A DNA stretch of 64,000 nucleotides, taken from assembly GCA_016192425.1 (NCBI GenBank), contig JACPUE010000066.1, positions 99,306 through 163,305 on the forward strand. Reading direction: 5' to 3'. A model generated the notes under the pieces. The model saw only the letters and a list, made by a program, of their open reading frames with translations, was not told the origin of the DNA and searched no databases. The position numbers and the translations under genes are program-made. Source of the stretch: Burkholderiales bacterium (GTDB lineage: Bacteria; Pseudomonadota; Gammaproteobacteria; Burkholderiales; Burkholderiaceae_C). This document shows positions 28,482 through 32,572 of the stretch, piece after piece (the stretch's first letter is position 1; each line of letters opens with the position of its first letter).

Positions 28482-29312
28482 TCAGCGGTGGTAGCGCAGC
28501 ACAGTGTCGTGCAACAGCGCATCCAGCGTGGCGTGACTGGGTACGGGCAGTGGCTGCACAGGCTCGGCCGCATTGCGGGCCAGCTCGGCTTCGATAAAGG
28601 CATGGATGCCGGACCAGCGGGGGCTGGTGGCAGCCTCGTCGGCGCGCATCTTTATCTCCAGCAGTGCGTTGATCTCATCGACCAGCGCAGCGTCGTGCAC
28701 GGGGTGCAGCGTGTGCTGGGCCAGCTCGGCAAAGCGCATGGGCGGCACGCCGGGTTGCGTGCGGATCCAGCGTGCGGCCAGCAGCGGGCGCAGCACGTAC
28801 AAGTACTTTTTGTAGCGCACCTCGTCAGCTTGCAAATGCTCGCGGAAGTTCTTCTTGGCCATGGCCGCGTAGTGGTGCCAGCCCTTGGCGTTGGAGAACA
28901 CCTGCGCCGCCAGCGTGCGGAACTGCGCCATCGTGTCACCCTCTTCGCGGTACACGATGGGCGAGCCCAGCCATTCGAGCAGCGTGGGGTTGGATTCGCG
29001 CAGCAGCCCCAGCGCCTTGCGCAGGTCCCAACCGTTCACATCCAGGTCCCCACTGATTGGCAGCTCGATCACATCACGCCCCGGCGCAATGGTCAGGTAC
29101 CAGGGCAGCCGGTGCACGTAGATAAAGCGCACGTCGTAGTCGCTGTCGGGTGAGGCAAAGCCCCAGCCCCGGCTGCCAGATTCGCAGGCGAAGAGGACTG
29201 TCACGCCGTGCGTGGACTCGATGCGCTGCAGCTCCTGCATCACCTGTGCGCGCATGTGGGGCTCCACCGGGTGGGAGGAGCGCAGCATTTCCTGTTGGTC
29301 TGTTTTTTGCAT
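28482..29312 (-). CDS. DNA polymerase beta-superfamily nucleotidyltransferase of the RNA-repair-associated family
   Basis: GS…D.D motif (ACESGSRGWGFASPDSDYDVRF). Confidence 0.65.
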   Translation of the reverse strand: MQKTDQQEMLRSSHPVEPHMRAQVMQELQRIESTHGVTVLFACESGSRGWGFASPDSDYDVRFIYVHRLPWYLTIAPGRDVIELPISGDLDVNGWDLRKALGLLRESNPTLLEWLGSPIVYREEGDTMAQFRTLAAQVFSNAKGWHHYAAMAKKNFREHLQADEVRYKKYLYVLRPLLAARWIRTQPGVPPMRFAELAQHTLHPVHDAALVDEINALLEIKMRADEAATSPRWSGIHAFIEAELARNAAEPVQPLPVPSHATLDALLHDTVLRYHR

Positions 29313-29317
29313 AAAAT

Positions 29318-29365
29318 GAGCTGTATCGCTTGTTGGATAAGCGCTTGAAGCTATCAAAAGTGTAG
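29318..29365. repeat. AT-rich motif, inverted pair (intergenic, between rtcB and the nucleotidyltransferase gene)
   Basis: GAGCTGTATCGCTT-GTTGG-ATAAGCGCTTGAAGCTATCAAAAG. Confidence 0.7.
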
Positions 29366-29408
29366 TGAGCCAATAGTGCGGTGCTGTCACCAGCGCCGCA
29401 CAGGGCGG

Positions 29409-30632
29409 TCACCCCTTCACGCAAACGACCTGCTTGAGCGTGTAAACGACTTCCACCAGGTCATGCTGCGCCGCCATCACCGCGTCGATGTCCTTGTAGG
29501 CCATCGGGATCTCATCGATCACGTCCGCATCCTTGCGGCATTCCACGCCCTCGGTTGCGGCGATCTGGTCGGCCACGGTGTACATCTTCTTGGCCTTGGT
29601 GCGGCTCATGGTGCGGCCTGCGCCGTGGCTGCAGCTGTTGAAGCTCTCGGGGTGGCCCTTTCCACGCACGATGAAGCTCTTGGCCCCCATGCTCCCCGGG
29701 ATGATCCCCAGCTTGCCTTGCTCGGCACTCACCGCGCCCTTGCGGGTCACGAACACGTCTTGCCCGAAGTGCGTCTCGCGCTGCACGTAGTTGTGGTGGC
29801 AGTTCACGGCTTCCACGTGGGTCTCGAACGGCTTGGTGATGACCTTGCGCAGCGCGGCAATCACGCGGCCCATCATCACCTCGCGGTTGGCGGCGGCAAA
29901 CTTCTGCGCCCACCCTACGGCCTTCACGTAGTCGCCAAAGTACTGGGCACCTTCCTCGAAATACGCCAGATCCTTGTCCGGCAGGTTGCGCTGGTGCAGC
30001 TCGGCGTCTTTCTTGGCCAGCTCGATGAAGTGGGTGCCGATGGCGTTCCCCACCCCGCGCGAGCCGGAGTGCAGCATCACCCACACGGACTGGTGTTCGT
30101 CCAGGCAGATCTCGATGAAGTGGTTACCCGTTCCCAGCGTTCCCAGGTGCTTGTAGTTGTTCGTGTTCTTGATGCGCGGGTGCGCTTCGCAGATCTCGTC
30201 GAACTCGTCCACCAGCCCGGCCCAGGCGAGGTCGGTTTCTGTAGGCGGGGTATCCCAGCTTCCCTTGTCGCGGCCCATGCGCTTGGGGGTCAGGCCTACG
30301 GGTACGGCGCGCTCGATGGCGGCGCGCACACCGGCCAGGTTGTCGGGCAGATCGCTGGCGGTGAGCGTGGTCTTGCACGCCATCATTCCGCACCCCAGGT
30401 CCACCCCCACCGCAGCGGGGATGATGGCCTTGAGCGTGGGCACCACCGAGCCGATGGTCGCGCCGATCCCCAGGTGCACATCGGGCATCACCGCGACGTG
30501 CTTGAACACGATGGGCAGGCGCGCGATGTTGCGCAGCTGGTTCTTTGCGTCGTCTTCCACGGGTACGCCGTTGGTCCACATCTTCACGGGGACGCCGTTC
30601 GGTACTTCGATTTGTTCGTAGTGGTTGCTCAT
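29409..30632 (-). CDS. rtcB: RNA-splicing ligase RtcB
   Basis: Collinear with E. coli RtcB (…NYKHLGTLGTGNHFIE…CSHGAGR…). A longer start at 30665 is possible. Confidence 0.9.
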   Translation of the reverse strand: MSNHYEQIEVPNGVPVKMWTNGVPVEDDAKNQLRNIARLPIVFKHVAVMPDVHLGIGATIGSVVPTLKAIIPAAVGVDLGCGMMACKTTLTASDLPDNLAGVRAAIERAVPVGLTPKRMGRDKGSWDTPPTETDLAWAGLVDEFDEICEAHPRIKNTNNYKHLGTLGTGNHFIEICLDEHQSVWVMLHSGSRGVGNAIGTHFIELAKKDAELHQRNLPDKDLAYFEEGAQYFGDYVKAVGWAQKFAAANREVMMGRVIAALRKVITKPFETHVEAVNCHHNYVQRETHFGQDVFVTRKGAVSAEQGKLGIIPGSMGAKSFIVRGKGHPESFNSCSHGAGRTMSRTKAKKMYTVADQIAATEGVECRKDADVIDEIPMAYKDIDAVMAAQHDLVEVVYTLKQVVCVKG

Positions 30633-30661
30633 ATCGTTTTTTCGTTCTTTCGTTTTTTTGT

Positions 30662-31402
30662 TCATTGAACCATTCCGCGCGCTGCGGCCTGGGCGTAGGT
30701 TTTCAGTTCATCGTCGTTCTTCACATTCCGGATGAAGGCATCCATGCGTGCCTGCAGTTCACCAGGGCGGTTCAGGTGCACTCCCTCGTGCCCGATCCCA
30801 TGCAACGCCGATACCTGTGCTTCGCGCCAAGGCATGGCCAGCATTGCGCAGAACACCTGCCACATTGCGTCGCGCCATTCGGGGATGTGCTTGGCATTCC
30901 AGAACGTGGGCCACACGTCAAACCACATGTAGCTCACGAAGTACAGCCGATCGCTTCGGCTTCCGATGGTGTTCGGCGCGGTGTCCAGGCGCGGGCCCAG
31001 GCAGTCGCGCCATAAAGTGGGCAGGGCCTGCACCATGCGCATCGCGTCGGCCAGGGGCACGGAAGGGTCGTTCACCATGTGCGGGATGTCTCCCGCGTTG
31101 TTGCTCATCACATGGTTCAGGCCCATGCCGACCTGATCGTCGCTGTAAGGCGCCAGGTCCGTTCCCGCATTGGCGAACAGCACGGTCTGGACGTGCGTCC
31201 ATTGCAGCGGCGTGGCTTCGAACTCCGGCTCGTCGATCAGCCAATACCACTCCTGCCCGCTCTTGTCGGGCACGGGGCGGTCGAACAGGTAGCGCAGGGC
31301 CGCGCTGTAGACCGCTGGATCCAGGCCGACAGATGCGCACGTGGCGGGTGTGGTGTCCCGCTGCAAACGCTTTTCTCTTGCAGTTGGTTTTTTGTTCTTC
31401 AT
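30662..31402 (-). CDS. hypothetical Trp-rich protein; no recognisable family
   Basis: 246-aa ORF directly upstream of rtcB on the same strand. Coding-like codon usage. Confidence 0.5.
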   Translation of the reverse strand: MKNKKPTAREKRLQRDTTPATCASVGLDPAVYSAALRYLFDRPVPDKSGQEWYWLIDEPEFEATPLQWTHVQTVLFANAGTDLAPYSDDQVGMGLNHVMSNNAGDIPHMVNDPSVPLADAMRMVQALPTLWRDCLGPRLDTAPNTIGSRSDRLYFVSYMWFDVWPTFWNAKHIPEWRDAMWQVFCAMLAMPWREAQVSALHGIGHEGVHLNRPGELQARMDAFIRNVKNDDELKTYAQAAARGMVQ

Positions 31403-31429
31403 GGCAGTTCTCTCTGCGTTTGTTTTTGC

Positions 31430-32572
31430 TCAGCGCATTTTCACCAGGCCATTGAGCACCTGATCCAGGCCGCCAAACACCGAGATCTTGTCGATCCGCT
31501 CGGCCACGCGCTCCAGCGTCTCCAGCTCCTTCATACGCAGGGCGACGGGGTTGTCTTCCATCACCTTGGCGGTGTTGAGCAGCGAGCGCGTGGCGGCGGT
31601 TTCCTCGCGGCGGCGGATCACGTTGGCCTCGGCCTGTTTCTGGGCCTGCACCACCTGGGTCAGGATGGTTTTCATCTCGCCGGGCAGCACGATGTCCTTC
31701 ACGCCCACGCTCTCCAGCTGCATGCCATAGGGCTGCAGCTTGGCGGCCATGTGCGCGGTCACCACCTCGTCGATCACCGTCTTGTTCTCCAGCAACTCAT
31801 CAAGCGTGCGGGTGCCCACGGCGGCGCGCAGCGCAAACTGCAGCTCGCGGTAGAGGTGGTCGGCAGGCTTTTGCAATTGGGCAAAGGCGCGCAGCACATC
31901 GGTGTAGCGGTAGGTGGCGCACAGGTTCAGGCGCAGGCTTACCTTGTCGCGGGTCATGATGTCCTGGCCCGATACCTCTACGGCTTGCAGGCGCAGATCC
32001 ACCAGCTCCACGGCGACGGTGCGGCCGTACTTCCAGAAGGCGTAGGTGCCTGCGGTCAGCAGGCGCTCGACCTTGCCGTCCACCGTCAGCAGCGCGCACT
32101 GGCCTTCGGGCACTTGCACCTGCAGCACGCCGGTCAGGCCCGTCACCGCACGCTGGCGCAGTTGGGTTTGGGTCAGGCGCGCCACCAGGTCGGCGGGCAG
32201 TTCGGCGCCCGCTTGCAGGTCCACCACCTGGACGGTCACCTGGACCAGGCCCTTCCAGTACAGGCGGCGGGTGCCAGGGGGCAGGATTTCCACCAGCACA
32301 CCGTTCTCGCTGCGCAGGCCCACTTCGGTTTCCGACAGATTCACCTGCACAAACTCGGCAGCCACTACGGCGGGCTCCTGCGCCATCAGGTACTCGGCCA
32401 GGCCGTGGGTGAAGGCGGGTTGTTCCAGGGCGAAAGTCTCCGCACGCAACTGATCCATGCCTGCAAACAGCCAGTAGGTGCCGCTGTGCAGCACGCGGTC
32501 AAAGCTGCCATTGCGCAGCAGCAGGGCGCGTTCGTTCTTTTTCACCGTGGTGCGTTGGAACAACTTCAGCAT
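31430..32572 (-). CDS. SPFH/Band-7 (stomatin-like) domain protein with a long N-terminal extension
   Basis: C-terminal SPFH signature …GVKDIVLPGEMKTILTQVVQAQKQAEANVIRRREETAATRSL…. Confidence 0.7.
   Translation of the reverse strand: MLKLFQRTTVKKNERALLLRNGSFDRVLHSGTYWLFAGMDQLRAETFALEQPAFTHGLAEYLMAQEPAVVAAEFVQVNLSETEVGLRSENGVLVEILPPGTRRLYWKGLVQVTVQVVDLQAGAELPADLVARLTQTQLRQRAVTGLTGVLQVQVPEGQCALLTVDGKVERLLTAGTYAFWKYGRTVAVELVDLRLQAVEVSGQDIMTRDKVSLRLNLCATYRYTDVLRAFAQLQKPADHLYRELQFALRAAVGTRTLDELLENKTVIDEVVTAHMAAKLQPYGMQLESVGVKDIVLPGEMKTILTQVVQAQKQAEANVIRRREETAATRSLLNTAKVMEDNPVALRMKELETLERVAERIDKISVFGGLDQVLNGLVKMR

Follow-up and report, generated by a model that had tools for sequence, protein, structure and literature searches.

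RNA repair operons combining a Band-7 (SPFH) protein, a b7a-tRNA and the ligase RtcB were described by Burroughs & Aravind (NAR 2016), as relayed in 10.1101/312249, PMC12776372 and PMC6514570. The Pseudomonas rtc locus contains rtcR, the SPFH gene PaFlo8, rtcB, rlaP and rtcA (PMC12776372, PMC13086221). Pseudomonas RlaP extends RNA 3'-OH ends by 1–2 NMPs and restores the aminoacylation of over-trimmed repaired tRNA (PMC12776372). In a different setting, a gene for a TPR scaffold has accreted to PrfH-RtcB operons (PMC6514570).

The window (the whole 64,000-nucleotide stretch of Burkholderiales DNA analysed here) contains the core of an operon of the Band-7 type controlled by RtcR and sigma54. 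An SPFH gene stands beside rtcB and is preceded by a tRNA-like RNA, the same locus also encodes RlaP, RtcA and a divergently oriented RtcR, and Ro/Rsr and SPFH are interchangeable among related loci. The locus differs from the described operons by an additional conserved gene without a curated family, orf246, between SPFH and rtcB, and by a tRNA-like RNA which in Acidovorax possesses a GNRA tetraloop and no anticodon loop. The regulator, SPFH protein, ligase, RlaP and cyclase are common to this locus and to that of Pseudomonas which, as described, has neither an orf246-type gene nor a MoxR/VWA pair (PMC12776372, PMC13086221). In the literature on RtcB repair operons, the 2016 Burroughs & Aravind survey and its supplement set aside, no mention of an orf246-type protein was found. 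The operon is already described; the component lacking annotation is orf246.

Organization of the operon

Four co-directional minus-strand ORFs were found at 31,430–32,572 (380 aa), 30,662–31,402 (246 aa), 29,409–30,665 (418 aa) and 28,482–29,390 (302 aa). ORF calling and Pfam agreed with the SPFH/Band-7, 246-aa ORF, RtcB and nucleotidyltransferase genes listed in an earlier note on this DNA. These four ORFs occupy the middle of a longer operon on the minus strand, which diverges from rtcR and has the order: sigma54-type promoter, tRNA-like leader RNA, SPFH, orf246, RtcB, RlaP, MoxR, VWA/metallopeptidase protein and RtcA. The features of the region are the following:

33273..34910, plus strand: rtcR, sigma54-dependent activator with an RtcR (CARF-like) N-terminal domain (Pfam RtcR E 2e-80, Sigma54_activat E 1e-48)
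33136..33151, minus strand: sigma54-type -24/-12 promoter element TGGCACGCATCTGGCA, read directly from the sequence
32866..32938, minus strand: tRNA-like element, operon leader (Band-7-associated tRNA-like RNA; ARAGORN, Rfam tRNA)
32788..32812, minus strand: terminator-like hairpin followed by a T7 run (consensus scan)
31430..32572, minus strand: soluble SPFH/Band-7 (slipin/stomatin-like) protein (Pfam Band_7 E 1e-31, residues 153-324)
30662..31402, minus strand: orf246, predicted acidic HEAT/ARM-like alpha-solenoid with a basic N-terminal tail, no Pfam match and no curated family (homology and model)
29409..30632, minus strand: rtcB RNA ligase from its conserved start, the longest-ORF start being 30665 (Pfam E 9e-129; start comparison across loci)
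28482..29390, minus strand: RlaP (PF10127), Pol-beta-family nucleotidyltransferase (Pfam E 7e-93; start uncertain, GTG 29390 or ATG 29312)
27386..28450, minus strand: MoxR-type AAA+ ATPase (Pfam AAA_5, AAA, weak bpMoxR match)
25552..27378, minus strand: DUF2201 protein with putative metallopeptidase and VWA-like domains, MoxR partner (Pfam DUF2201_N E 6e-21, DUF2201)
24461..25552, minus strand: rtcA, RNA 3'-phosphate cyclase, last gene of the operon (Pfam RTC E 1e-73)
35327-36325, plus strand: PF09414 5'-P RNA ligase, downstream of rtcR (Pfam RNA_ligase E 2e-32)
about 36310-37500, plus strand: HD and P-loop kinase protein (AAA_33 E 1e-19, weak HD match)

The tRNA-like gene, rtcR, the MoxR/VWA pair, rtcA and the second ligase/kinase pair beyond rtcR were absent from the earlier note. 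In most related loci rtcR is likewise upstream and divergent. MoxR was found in only a subset of them, where the DUF2201/VWA protein co-occurs with it. The rtcA start at position 25,552 produces a 1-nt overlap with the VWA stop codon. The second repair pair (35327..37500), which showed weak NCBIfam matches to Pnkp and to the CCA-enzyme HD domain, was seen beside rtcR in a single related locus, L006. When the operon proteins were compared with PADLOC models, marginal AAA matches were obtained for MoxR only (E > 2e-3) and none for orf246 or SPFH.

The leader region and the SPFH protein

The -24/-12 element, a putative sigma54-type promoter, recurs in the corresponding position of 14 related Acidovorax loci, and three loci (L020, L029 and L030) show the canonical TTGCA -12 element. 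The tRNA-like element scored 37.4 bits against the Rfam tRNA model (gathering score 29), aligning with model positions 5-66 only, and a 4-nt GCAA tetraloop occupies the place of the 7-nt anticodon loop. With this tetraloop and partial model coverage, it was rejected as a genuine decoding tRNA, which would have a 7-nt anticodon loop and a complete acceptor stem of 7 bp. Where the sequence of an SPFH locus extends far enough upstream, a counterpart is almost always present, some 300-400 nt before the SPFH gene. The D and T arms covary, as does a portion of the acceptor stem, and the "anticodons" vary among orthologous loci. YrlA (RF02553) was also considered and rejected, with a partial match at 32912-32964 of 21.1 bits (E 0.09) compared to a gathering score of 69. 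The terminator-like hairpin, about 55 nt past the tRNA-like element, could possibly be the 3' end of a short RNA or an attenuator; its support is weak because the consensus scan found two sites when 1.4 were expected.

The SPFH protein combines three beta modules, each of five strands, with an SPFH core and a long helix at the C-terminus, and resembles stomatin and HflK in sequence and fold. Band_7 begins at residue 153 and the alignment of solved stomatin cores at about residue 185, which confirms the N-terminal extension noticed earlier. The membrane anchor typical of stomatin, HflK/C, flotillin and QmcA is absent (maximum 19-aa Kyte-Doolittle mean of 0.97), and two extra beta modules make up the N-terminus in its place.

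RtcB and RlaP

RtcB gave a full-length match to PF01139, over model positions 1-426, with 430.8 bits for a cut-off of 27. The earlier note had proposed that the 246-aa ORF overlaps the start of rtcB. This ATGA overlap exists only with the longest RtcB ORF, and the upstream ATG is missing or out of frame in most orthologous loci. A conserved start, M-[SNT]-N-x-YEQ...VPNGVPVKMW, is located 17-40 nt past the orf246 stop across loci, and the start in the window is therefore placed at 30632, leaving a gap of 29 nt; 27 nt separate SPFH from orf246. The overlap is probably a longest-ORF artefact, judging from this comparison, and coupling of translation through such an overlap is not a conserved feature.

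Directly downstream of rtcB, RlaP matched PF10127 over model positions 1-249 with 311 bits. The Pol-beta GS...DxD motif pointed out in the earlier note is visible in the sequence (ACESGSRGWGFASPDSDYDVRF, also given as ESGSRGWGFASPDSDYD). The proposal that this enzyme repairs 3' ends was essentially right and had already been published (PMC12776372); that work covers the repair of internally damaged RNA and not specifically that of CCA, which the note had given as an example.

The orf246 family

The orf246 gene is real, coding and conserved. Its GC content at the three codon positions (0.62/0.45/0.79) matches that of the neighbour genes, and the protein is Trp-rich as first remarked, with 10 tryptophans in 246 residues (4.0%) compared to 0.8-3.2% in the neighbour proteins. 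Labelled an orphan at first, it possesses 251 homologues in a word-index search, and 596 cluster representatives (50% identity) at E<=1e-3 in an exhaustive search. The doubts anticipated by the earlier note, a lack of conservation or of coding potential, are dispelled by the number of homologues and by the GC3 value. That it has no recognisable family holds for the curated libraries, as no family was found in Pfam, NCBIfam or PADLOC, but a large uncurated family exists whose distant members are not rtc-linked. The range of orf246 is largely restricted to Comamonadaceae- and Sphaerotilaceae-like genomes. By the same search method, the SPFH partner family counts at least 7,979 proteins versus the 251 homologues of orf246.

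Among the 53 loci of the orf246 clade with at least 1.5 kb readable on both sides, 47 have orf246 beside RtcB, SPFH or Ro: 41 with SPFH or Ro plus RtcB, four with RtcB only and two with SPFH only. Six members lie away from any rtc gene (L038, L042, L047, L074, L076, L078), and the distant relatives, approximately 30% identical, are in unrelated contexts. The tree groups the rtc-linked members in a single clade, apart from the unlinked distant members. The gene keeps its place beside RtcB in loci where Rsr (L014, L019, L020, L023, L077) or another gene (L043) stands instead of SPFH. Members with 37-38% identity occupy other slots of the operon, in the orders SPFH-RtcB-RlaP-X-RtcA (L057) and RtcB-X-RtcA (L056).

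The AlphaFold2 model, a check also suggested in the earlier note, was all-alpha (pLDDT 95.1, pTM 0.89), and the family profile matched designed Armadillo repeats (E 2e-8). The modelled fold is a compact HEAT/ARM-like alpha-solenoid. Compared with known HEAT/ARM-like proteins (karyopherins, MIF4G, TOG, the AlkD family, PBS-lyase HEAT-like repeats), the family showed neither a Pfam HEAT/ARM match (0 of 76 members at E<=1, with only three weak LRV_2 matches) nor a significant PDB match by Foldseek (best E 0.18, TM <= 0.46). The acidic core has a pI of 5.0 and carries a short basic N-terminal tail. Seven polar or aromatic residues are kept family-wide, unlinked members included (W52, Q90, R138, D162, H201, H205, Y236), and H201 and H205 are on one helix with i/i+4 spacing. 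The rtc clade gained Trp or Phe at positions 68, 131, 164, 167, 176 and 181, as well as the basic tail, and lost the conserved Glu and Cys residues of the distant clade. Gains of this kind would be expected if a new binding surface had evolved.

Possible roles of orf246

The earlier note saw in orf246 a dedicated RtcB partner analogous to Archease or PrfH. The support for a dedicated partner comes from genomic linkage, in 47 of the 53 loci, through exchanges of SPFH for Ro/Rsr and in the diverged members at other operon positions, whereas the mechanistic analogy found no support. Like Archease, orf246 encodes a small protein genetically linked to RtcB. Archease is an alpha/beta protein, whereas orf246 is modelled as an all-alpha solenoid and has no Pfam Archease match. 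Neither the Pfam and NCBIfam searches, which gave no match, nor the HEAT/ARM-like fold, a scaffold class which is not that of these cofactors, suggests an Archease or PrfH analogue. A precedent is provided by the PrfH-RtcB2 operons, where an alpha-solenoid gene, proposed to encode a scaffold, was likewise added to an RtcB module (PMC6514570). The two proteins are unrelated in sequence, TPR in one case and HEAT/ARM-like in the other, and are associated with PrfH and the ribosome versus SPFH or Ro and a tRNA-like RNA.

As the most likely reading we propose tentatively, giving it somewhat less than an even chance, that orf246 is a non-catalytic adaptor which joins RtcB to the SPFH or Ro-RNA scaffold, or to broken tRNA substrates. 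In the workflow that we infer for the operon, the leader transcript would bear the tRNA-like RNA, which together with the soluble SPFH protein, probably forming a ring or cage, would constitute the scaffold. RtcB would join breaks with 2',3'-cyclic-P/3'-P and 5'-OH ends, RlaP would restore the nucleotides lost from 3' ends, RtcA would cyclise ends, and the MoxR/VWA pair may remodel the complex. By binding RtcB, orf246 would couple the ligase to the scaffold RNP, made of SPFH and the tRNA-like RNA or of Ro and a Y-like RNA. Several observations count against the adaptor. Genomic linkage alone cannot tell what orf246 binds, the acidity of the core speaks against direct contact with RNA, and the family-wide residues, H201 and H205 included, could be a metal/ligand site or an active site. 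The six clade members away from rtc genes and the unrelated contexts of the distant homologues also count against it. Furthermore, the SPFH family is far larger and the Pseudomonas loci are described without an orf246-type gene, so that the basic system can do without orf246.

A regulator, either of RtcB, by holding it inactive or chaperoning it, or of RtcR signalling through the RtcA/RtcB-RtcR CARF complex, seems unlikely to us. The linkage to RtcB is tight even where SPFH and Ro are missing (L043, L044, L060, L063), a homologue immediately precedes rtcA in L056 and L057, and E. coli RtcA and RtcB are reported to bind the RtcR CARF domain and to be required for activation (PMC9650030). However, orf246 accompanies SPFH without RtcB in L034 and L046, and modules without RtcR carry it, such as L025, L031, L035, L036 and L040. 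The presence of the gene in RtcR-less modules beside tRNA arrays also speaks against a passenger inherited with the operon within Burkholderiales and functionally unconnected to RNA repair, as do the three different positions of the gene in the rtc operons of divergent lineages, its persistence through exchanges of the upstream neighbour (SPFH, Rsr or a 269-aa gene) and its integrity down to 37% identity. The narrow taxonomic range, the clade members located elsewhere in the genome and the functioning of the core system without orf246 in other bacteria would fit a passenger, which we nevertheless regard as very unlikely.

The family-invariant cluster of His-x3-His, Asp, Arg, Gln and Tyr (H201, H205, D162, R138, Q90, Y236), kept in linked and unlinked clades, raises the question of an enzyme or a metal/ligand-binding factor. 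It could for example heal RNA ends, making the 3'-OH products of RlaP compatible with RtcB, which needs a 3'-P; by the explicit account of the RlaP paper, a 3'-kinase or a trimming step is missing (PMC12776372). But many rtc operons with orf246 have no RlaP (e.g., L003, L007-L009, L013, L018, L023, L025), distant homologues are outside any RNA repair context, the conserved Glu and Cys of the distant clade are gone from the rtc clade, and sequence-family, profile and structure searches gave no match to an enzyme family or fold. This role appears quite improbable. An acidic, immunity-like inhibitor of an RNA-cleaving toxin, blocking cleavage during repair, would agree with a core pI of about 5, with a wider family whose small genes stand alone in diverse surroundings, and with an operon thought to counter ribotoxins (PMC6514570, PMC12776372). 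We consider it highly improbable, since no toxin gene was adjacent in any examined locus and no PADLOC or Pfam model matched, the Pfam immunity-protein families included. The conservation of orf246 is also higher and more uniform than expected of immunity proteins.

A more specific form of the adaptor proposal, which we hold to be rather unlikely, makes orf246 an obligatory docking subunit of the soluble SPFH cage. RtcB would be tethered to, or inside, an SPFH ring loaded with the tRNA-like RNA, or a Ro-Y RNA ring, and the invariant His/His/Asp/Arg site would bind a ligand or an RNA end, either of which would gate the docking. One clade of the orf246 family has been recruited into the RNA repair operon in a group of Burkholderiales bacteria. 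If the docking subunit were real, these bacteria would possess a dedicated "repairosome" compartment, in which broken tRNAs would be captured, trimmed or extended, and resealed.

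Organization of the rtc Operon

Among the related loci carrying orf246 homologues (L-numbers below), the best matches to orf246 of the window were 85-88% identical, which made the window Acidovorax-like. The co-directional genes for the SPFH protein, orf246, RtcB and RlaP (28482-32572) were the middle of a longer minus-strand unit. The features were as follows.

33151-33136, minus strand: sigma54-type -24/-12 element TGGCACGCATCTGGCA, at the 5' end of the operon
32938-32866, minus strand: tRNA-like element, between the sigma54-type element and the SPFH gene
31430-32572, minus strand: SPFH/Band_7 protein, 380 aa
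30662-31402, minus strand: orf246, 246 aa
29409-30665, minus strand: RtcB, longest ORF
28482-29390, minus strand: RlaP, 302 aa, end-to-end match to Pfam PF10127
27386-28450, minus strand: MoxR-type AAA+ ATPase
25552-27378, minus strand: DUF2201 metallopeptidase/VWA protein
24461-25552, minus strand: RtcA
33273-34910, divergent from the operon: rtcR

With the revised starts, the intergenic gaps measured 7-32 nt across the operon and the RtcA start shared one nucleotide with the VWA stop. In the window, the orf246 stop overlapped the in-frame ATG of the longest RtcB ORF (ATGA). The overlap seen by the earlier note is thus present, but it is doubtful, as it was not conserved: the upstream RtcB ATG was out of frame or missing in most orthologous loci. 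The first conserved RtcB start (M-[SNT]-N-x-YEQ...) lay 17-40 nt past the orf246 stop, behind a conserved purine-rich stretch, and agreed with the canonical RtcB N-terminus. In the window, the RtcB start is likely at position 30632. The close gene spacing suggests co-transcription, with no conserved overlap.

The MoxR and DUF2201 metallopeptidase/VWA pair (25552-28450, minus strand) was inserted between rlaP and rtcA and was found in some relatives only (L002, L011, L015, L022 and L079, with a degraded copy in L039). The G+C content of the rtc operon (26000-32000) was 0.62-0.63, slightly below that of the flanks (0.66-0.70), as would fit horizontal acquisition.

In bacteria, tRNA damage induces the Rtc systems, and these influence how cells survive ribosome-targeting antibiotics and toxins. 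The operon is of a known kind; its type had been described previously, as had RlaP and the tRNA-like RNA. As cited in 10.1101/312249, Burroughs and Aravind (2016) reported RtcB operons that also encode a Band-7 protein and a "band-7-associated tRNA", and considered this pair and Ro/Rsr with YrlA to be mutually substitutable. The P. aeruginosa locus, rtcR-SPFH-rtcB-rlaP-rtcA, has the same layout as the window operon. The PF10127 family owes the name RlaP to its being associated with RNA ligases; the Pseudomonas protein extends RNA 3'-OH ends by one or two NMPs, with a preference for damaged RNA, and is required for restoring the aminoacylation of over-trimmed repaired tRNA (PMC12776372). The guess that the nucleotidyltransferase repairs 3' ends was therefore right in substance, and already published.

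The orf246 Family and Its Predicted Fold

The 246-aa ORF had been called an orphan, which it is not. A word-index search returned 251 homologues, many of them 56-99% identical, and in an exhaustive search 596 representatives of 50%-identity clusters matched at E<=1e-3. The GC1/2/3 values (0.62/0.45/0.79) were like those of the neighbouring genes, and orf246 is a genuine gene. It fell into no family of Pfam, NCBIfam or PADLOC, and the Pfam result was the same for 76 diverse members scanned singly. The domain fusions seen in the family were uninformative: one had an N-terminal treble-clef zinc finger, and the others were without a Pfam match.

The family members, about 220-250 aa long, shared the motifs FD(H/R)P...WYW, YSDxQVxxGL, LYxDCFxxRC, CYMWWDV, ESALHGLGH and YAxxARxGxVQ. 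Fifteen residues were conserved in all clades: F40, W52, Q90, G94, R138, M159, D162, H201, G202, G204, H205, Y236, A237, A240 and G243. The rtc-linked clade gained five Trp (positions 68, 131, 164, 176, 181) and one Phe (167), and lost a Cys and a Glu conserved in the distant clade; the Trp-richness remarked on in the earlier note is therefore a derived character of the rtc-linked proteins. These members also carried a basic N-terminal tail of about 20 residues (pI 10.4), attached to a core that is acidic (pI 5.0).

The AF2 model of orf246 was very confident (pLDDT 95.1, pTM 0.89) and contained about 13 helices. Foldseek gave no significant neighbour in the PDB (best E 0.18), and the family profile matched designed Armadillo repeats (E 2e-8) over the helices bearing the ALHGLGH motif. 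Together, this all-helical model, the Armadillo match and the lack of a PDB neighbour make orf246 a small alpha-solenoid of the ARM/HEAT-like type, without a close relative among solved structures.

Linkage to the rtc Genes

A set of 47 species-level genome loci and 38 metagenome loci was compared after annotation by tblastn with the proteins of the window; they had been gathered with alignments narrower than the 76-sequence family set. Neighbours were counted at the 53 rtc-clade loci with flanks of 1.5 kb or more on each side. The neighbours were SPFH or Rsr plus RtcB in 41 of the 53, RtcB only in four, SPFH only in two and neither in six. Rsr/Ro60 replaced SPFH 5' of orf246 in L014, L019, L020, L023 and L077 (NCBIfam Rsr, E 1e-22), and in L043 the 5' neighbour was an unrelated 269-aa gene; at all these loci orf246 still adjoined rtcB. 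Members of 37-38% identity occupied other slots (SPFH-RtcB-RlaP-X-RtcA in L057 and RtcB-X-RtcA in L056, X being the orf246 homologue), and RtcR-less modules beside long tRNA arrays retained the SPFH-orf246-RtcB trio.

In a neighbour-joining tree, all rtc-linked members formed one clade, apart from the members of about 25-35% identity. The latter were mostly on unbinned metagenome contigs, a few labelled Anaerolineales, and their neighbourhoods were unrelated (methyltransferase and M20 peptidase; ABC substrate-binding proteins; LysE and YqeY). Some rtc-clade members, 47-58% identical to orf246, were located away from any rtc gene (L038, L042, L047, L074, L076 and L078; also L037 and L062), in unrelated neighbourhoods with NRPS, glycosyltransferase-like or panBC genes.

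The SPFH Protein, the tRNA-like RNA and the Leader

The SPFH protein was similar in sequence to stomatin (E 2e-18), and a search for a hydrophobic segment in it found none. The N-terminal extension of about 180 aa described by the earlier note was confirmed: the first 150-185 residues or so appear to form two extra copies of the five-strand beta module found just before the SPFH core, a reading based on a moderate-confidence AF2 model (pLDDT 70) and weak internal repeats (E 0.002). By the word-index method used for orf246, the SPFH family comprised at least 7,979 proteins at E<=1e-10. It is far larger than the orf246 family, which makes orf246 an optional accessory in a subset of such systems.

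The tRNA-like element of the window scored 37.4 bits with the Rfam tRNA model (gathering score 29), over model positions 5-66 only, and had a 4-nt GCAA tetraloop in place of the anticodon loop. A counterpart was present about 300-400 nt 5' of SPFH in nearly all related SPFH loci with enough upstream sequence. The RNA existed in two forms. The Acidovorax clade had a GNRA tetraloop with compensatory substitutions in the stem below, and the other clades a normal 7-nt loop with an "anticodon" differing by locus (GAU, CAU, AGU, CGU, CUC, CCU and others), as if free of decoding selection. Covariation supported both the D and T arms and three pairs of the acceptor stem. A sigma54-type element, kept within the close clade, was located 5' of the tRNA-like element; given this conserved upstream element, the RNA would be part of an RtcR-dependent transcript.

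From the sigma54 element to the SPFH start, the leader of about 560 nt (32573-33150, minus strand) was 75-85% identical across Acidovorax, an unusual degree of conservation for non-coding DNA. The global fold of the whole leader was no better than shuffles (z = -1.65), which lends no support to any structure bigger than the tRNA-like element. Two further hairpins were present in the leader: one terminator-like, followed by a T7 run (32797-32812), and one resembling a second T arm, where YrlA matched weakly (32912-32964) at 21 bits, far short of its gathering score of 69.

Other Accessory Genes and tRNA Arrays

Directly past rtcR, a second heal-and-seal pair (35327-37500, plus strand) was composed of a PF09414 5'-phosphate RNA ligase and an HD plus P-loop kinase protein that weakly matched Pnkp and the HD domain of the CCA enzyme. 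The two genes overlapped where they met, and the pair was shared with L006 only among the related loci. RlaP products are incompatible with RtcB, a problem raised in PMC12776372, and a 3'-OH/5'-P ligase could seal those products that RtcB cannot use. About 680 nt 3' of the pair and on the same strand was a bacterial class A RNase P RNA gene (38182-38644, plus strand; Rfam 165 bits). Its location near an operon making a tRNA-like RNA is notable and may be coincidental.

A second uncharacterised accessory gene, absent from the window, encoded a Cys-rich protein of about 269 aa with a CxxCC motif ("...LDVCLACCVDE..."). Its position relative to orf246 varied among the rtc operons, being 3' in some and 5' in others (L015 8787-9596; L043 7132-7941; L016, L017, L019, L020, L022, L024, L030, L032, L063, L079 and L082). 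The protein matched no family in Pfam, NCBIfam or PADLOC, and a relationship with orf246 was ruled out (hhalign probability 0.6%).

In Sphaerotilaceae-like relatives, the SPFH-orf246-RtcB trio without RtcR was located directly 3' of a long tRNA array, on the same strand, the arrays reaching 19-20 tRNAs (L025 3175-6317; L018 8743-10092; L036, L039, L066, L031, L034, L046, L061, L084 and L040). An HNH endonuclease gene (L034 5723-6283, Pfam HNH_5, E 1.5e-13) and a tRNA-like element followed the array. Neighbourhoods with an L-array, HNH and rtcB were reported in cyanobacteria (PMC8421152); we found no description of the beta-proteobacterial version with SPFH.

Possible Role of orf246

We tentatively propose, at a little under even chances, that orf246 is a protein-binding adaptor. 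It would couple RtcB to the SPFH-tRNA-like RNP (or a Ro-Y-like RNP), or to RtcB substrates. This proposal draws on the HEAT/ARM-like fold, the lack of an enzyme signature, the acidic core with its clade-specific aromatic surface and basic tail, and the position of orf246 between the scaffold and ligase genes, which persists through the scaffold swap. A solenoid scaffold has a precedent in the TPR gene of PrfH-RtcB operons (PMC6514570). The main evidence against an adaptor comes from polar residues, a His-x3-His pair among them, that are conserved throughout the family and may belong to a site for a ligand, a metal or catalysis. That orf246 is an enzyme or end-healing factor is quite improbable, a reading weakened by the frequent absence of RlaP where orf246 is present.

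Regulation of RtcB or of RtcR signalling by orf246 is unlikely, though the best placed of the alternatives. We give a small chance to a mere passenger gene; the swapped neighbours, the other slots and the RtcR-less trio argue for more than inherited synteny. Inhibition of a ribotoxin seems the least probable role. The earlier note is partly supported in its interpretation. Its observation was largely correct: the four ORFs were as it described, apart from the orphan status and the doubtful overlap, and it missed the operon context.

The gain is incremental, since operons of this type were already in the literature, RlaP and the tRNA-like RNA included. With its fold class, family extent and linkage established, the new part is an uncatalogued, conserved HEAT-like component with a putative role. 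orf246 defines a family of several hundred clusters outside every curated library, and it offers a concrete handle: small, well modelled, located between the scaffold and ligase genes, and tracking the ligase through several operon rearrangements.
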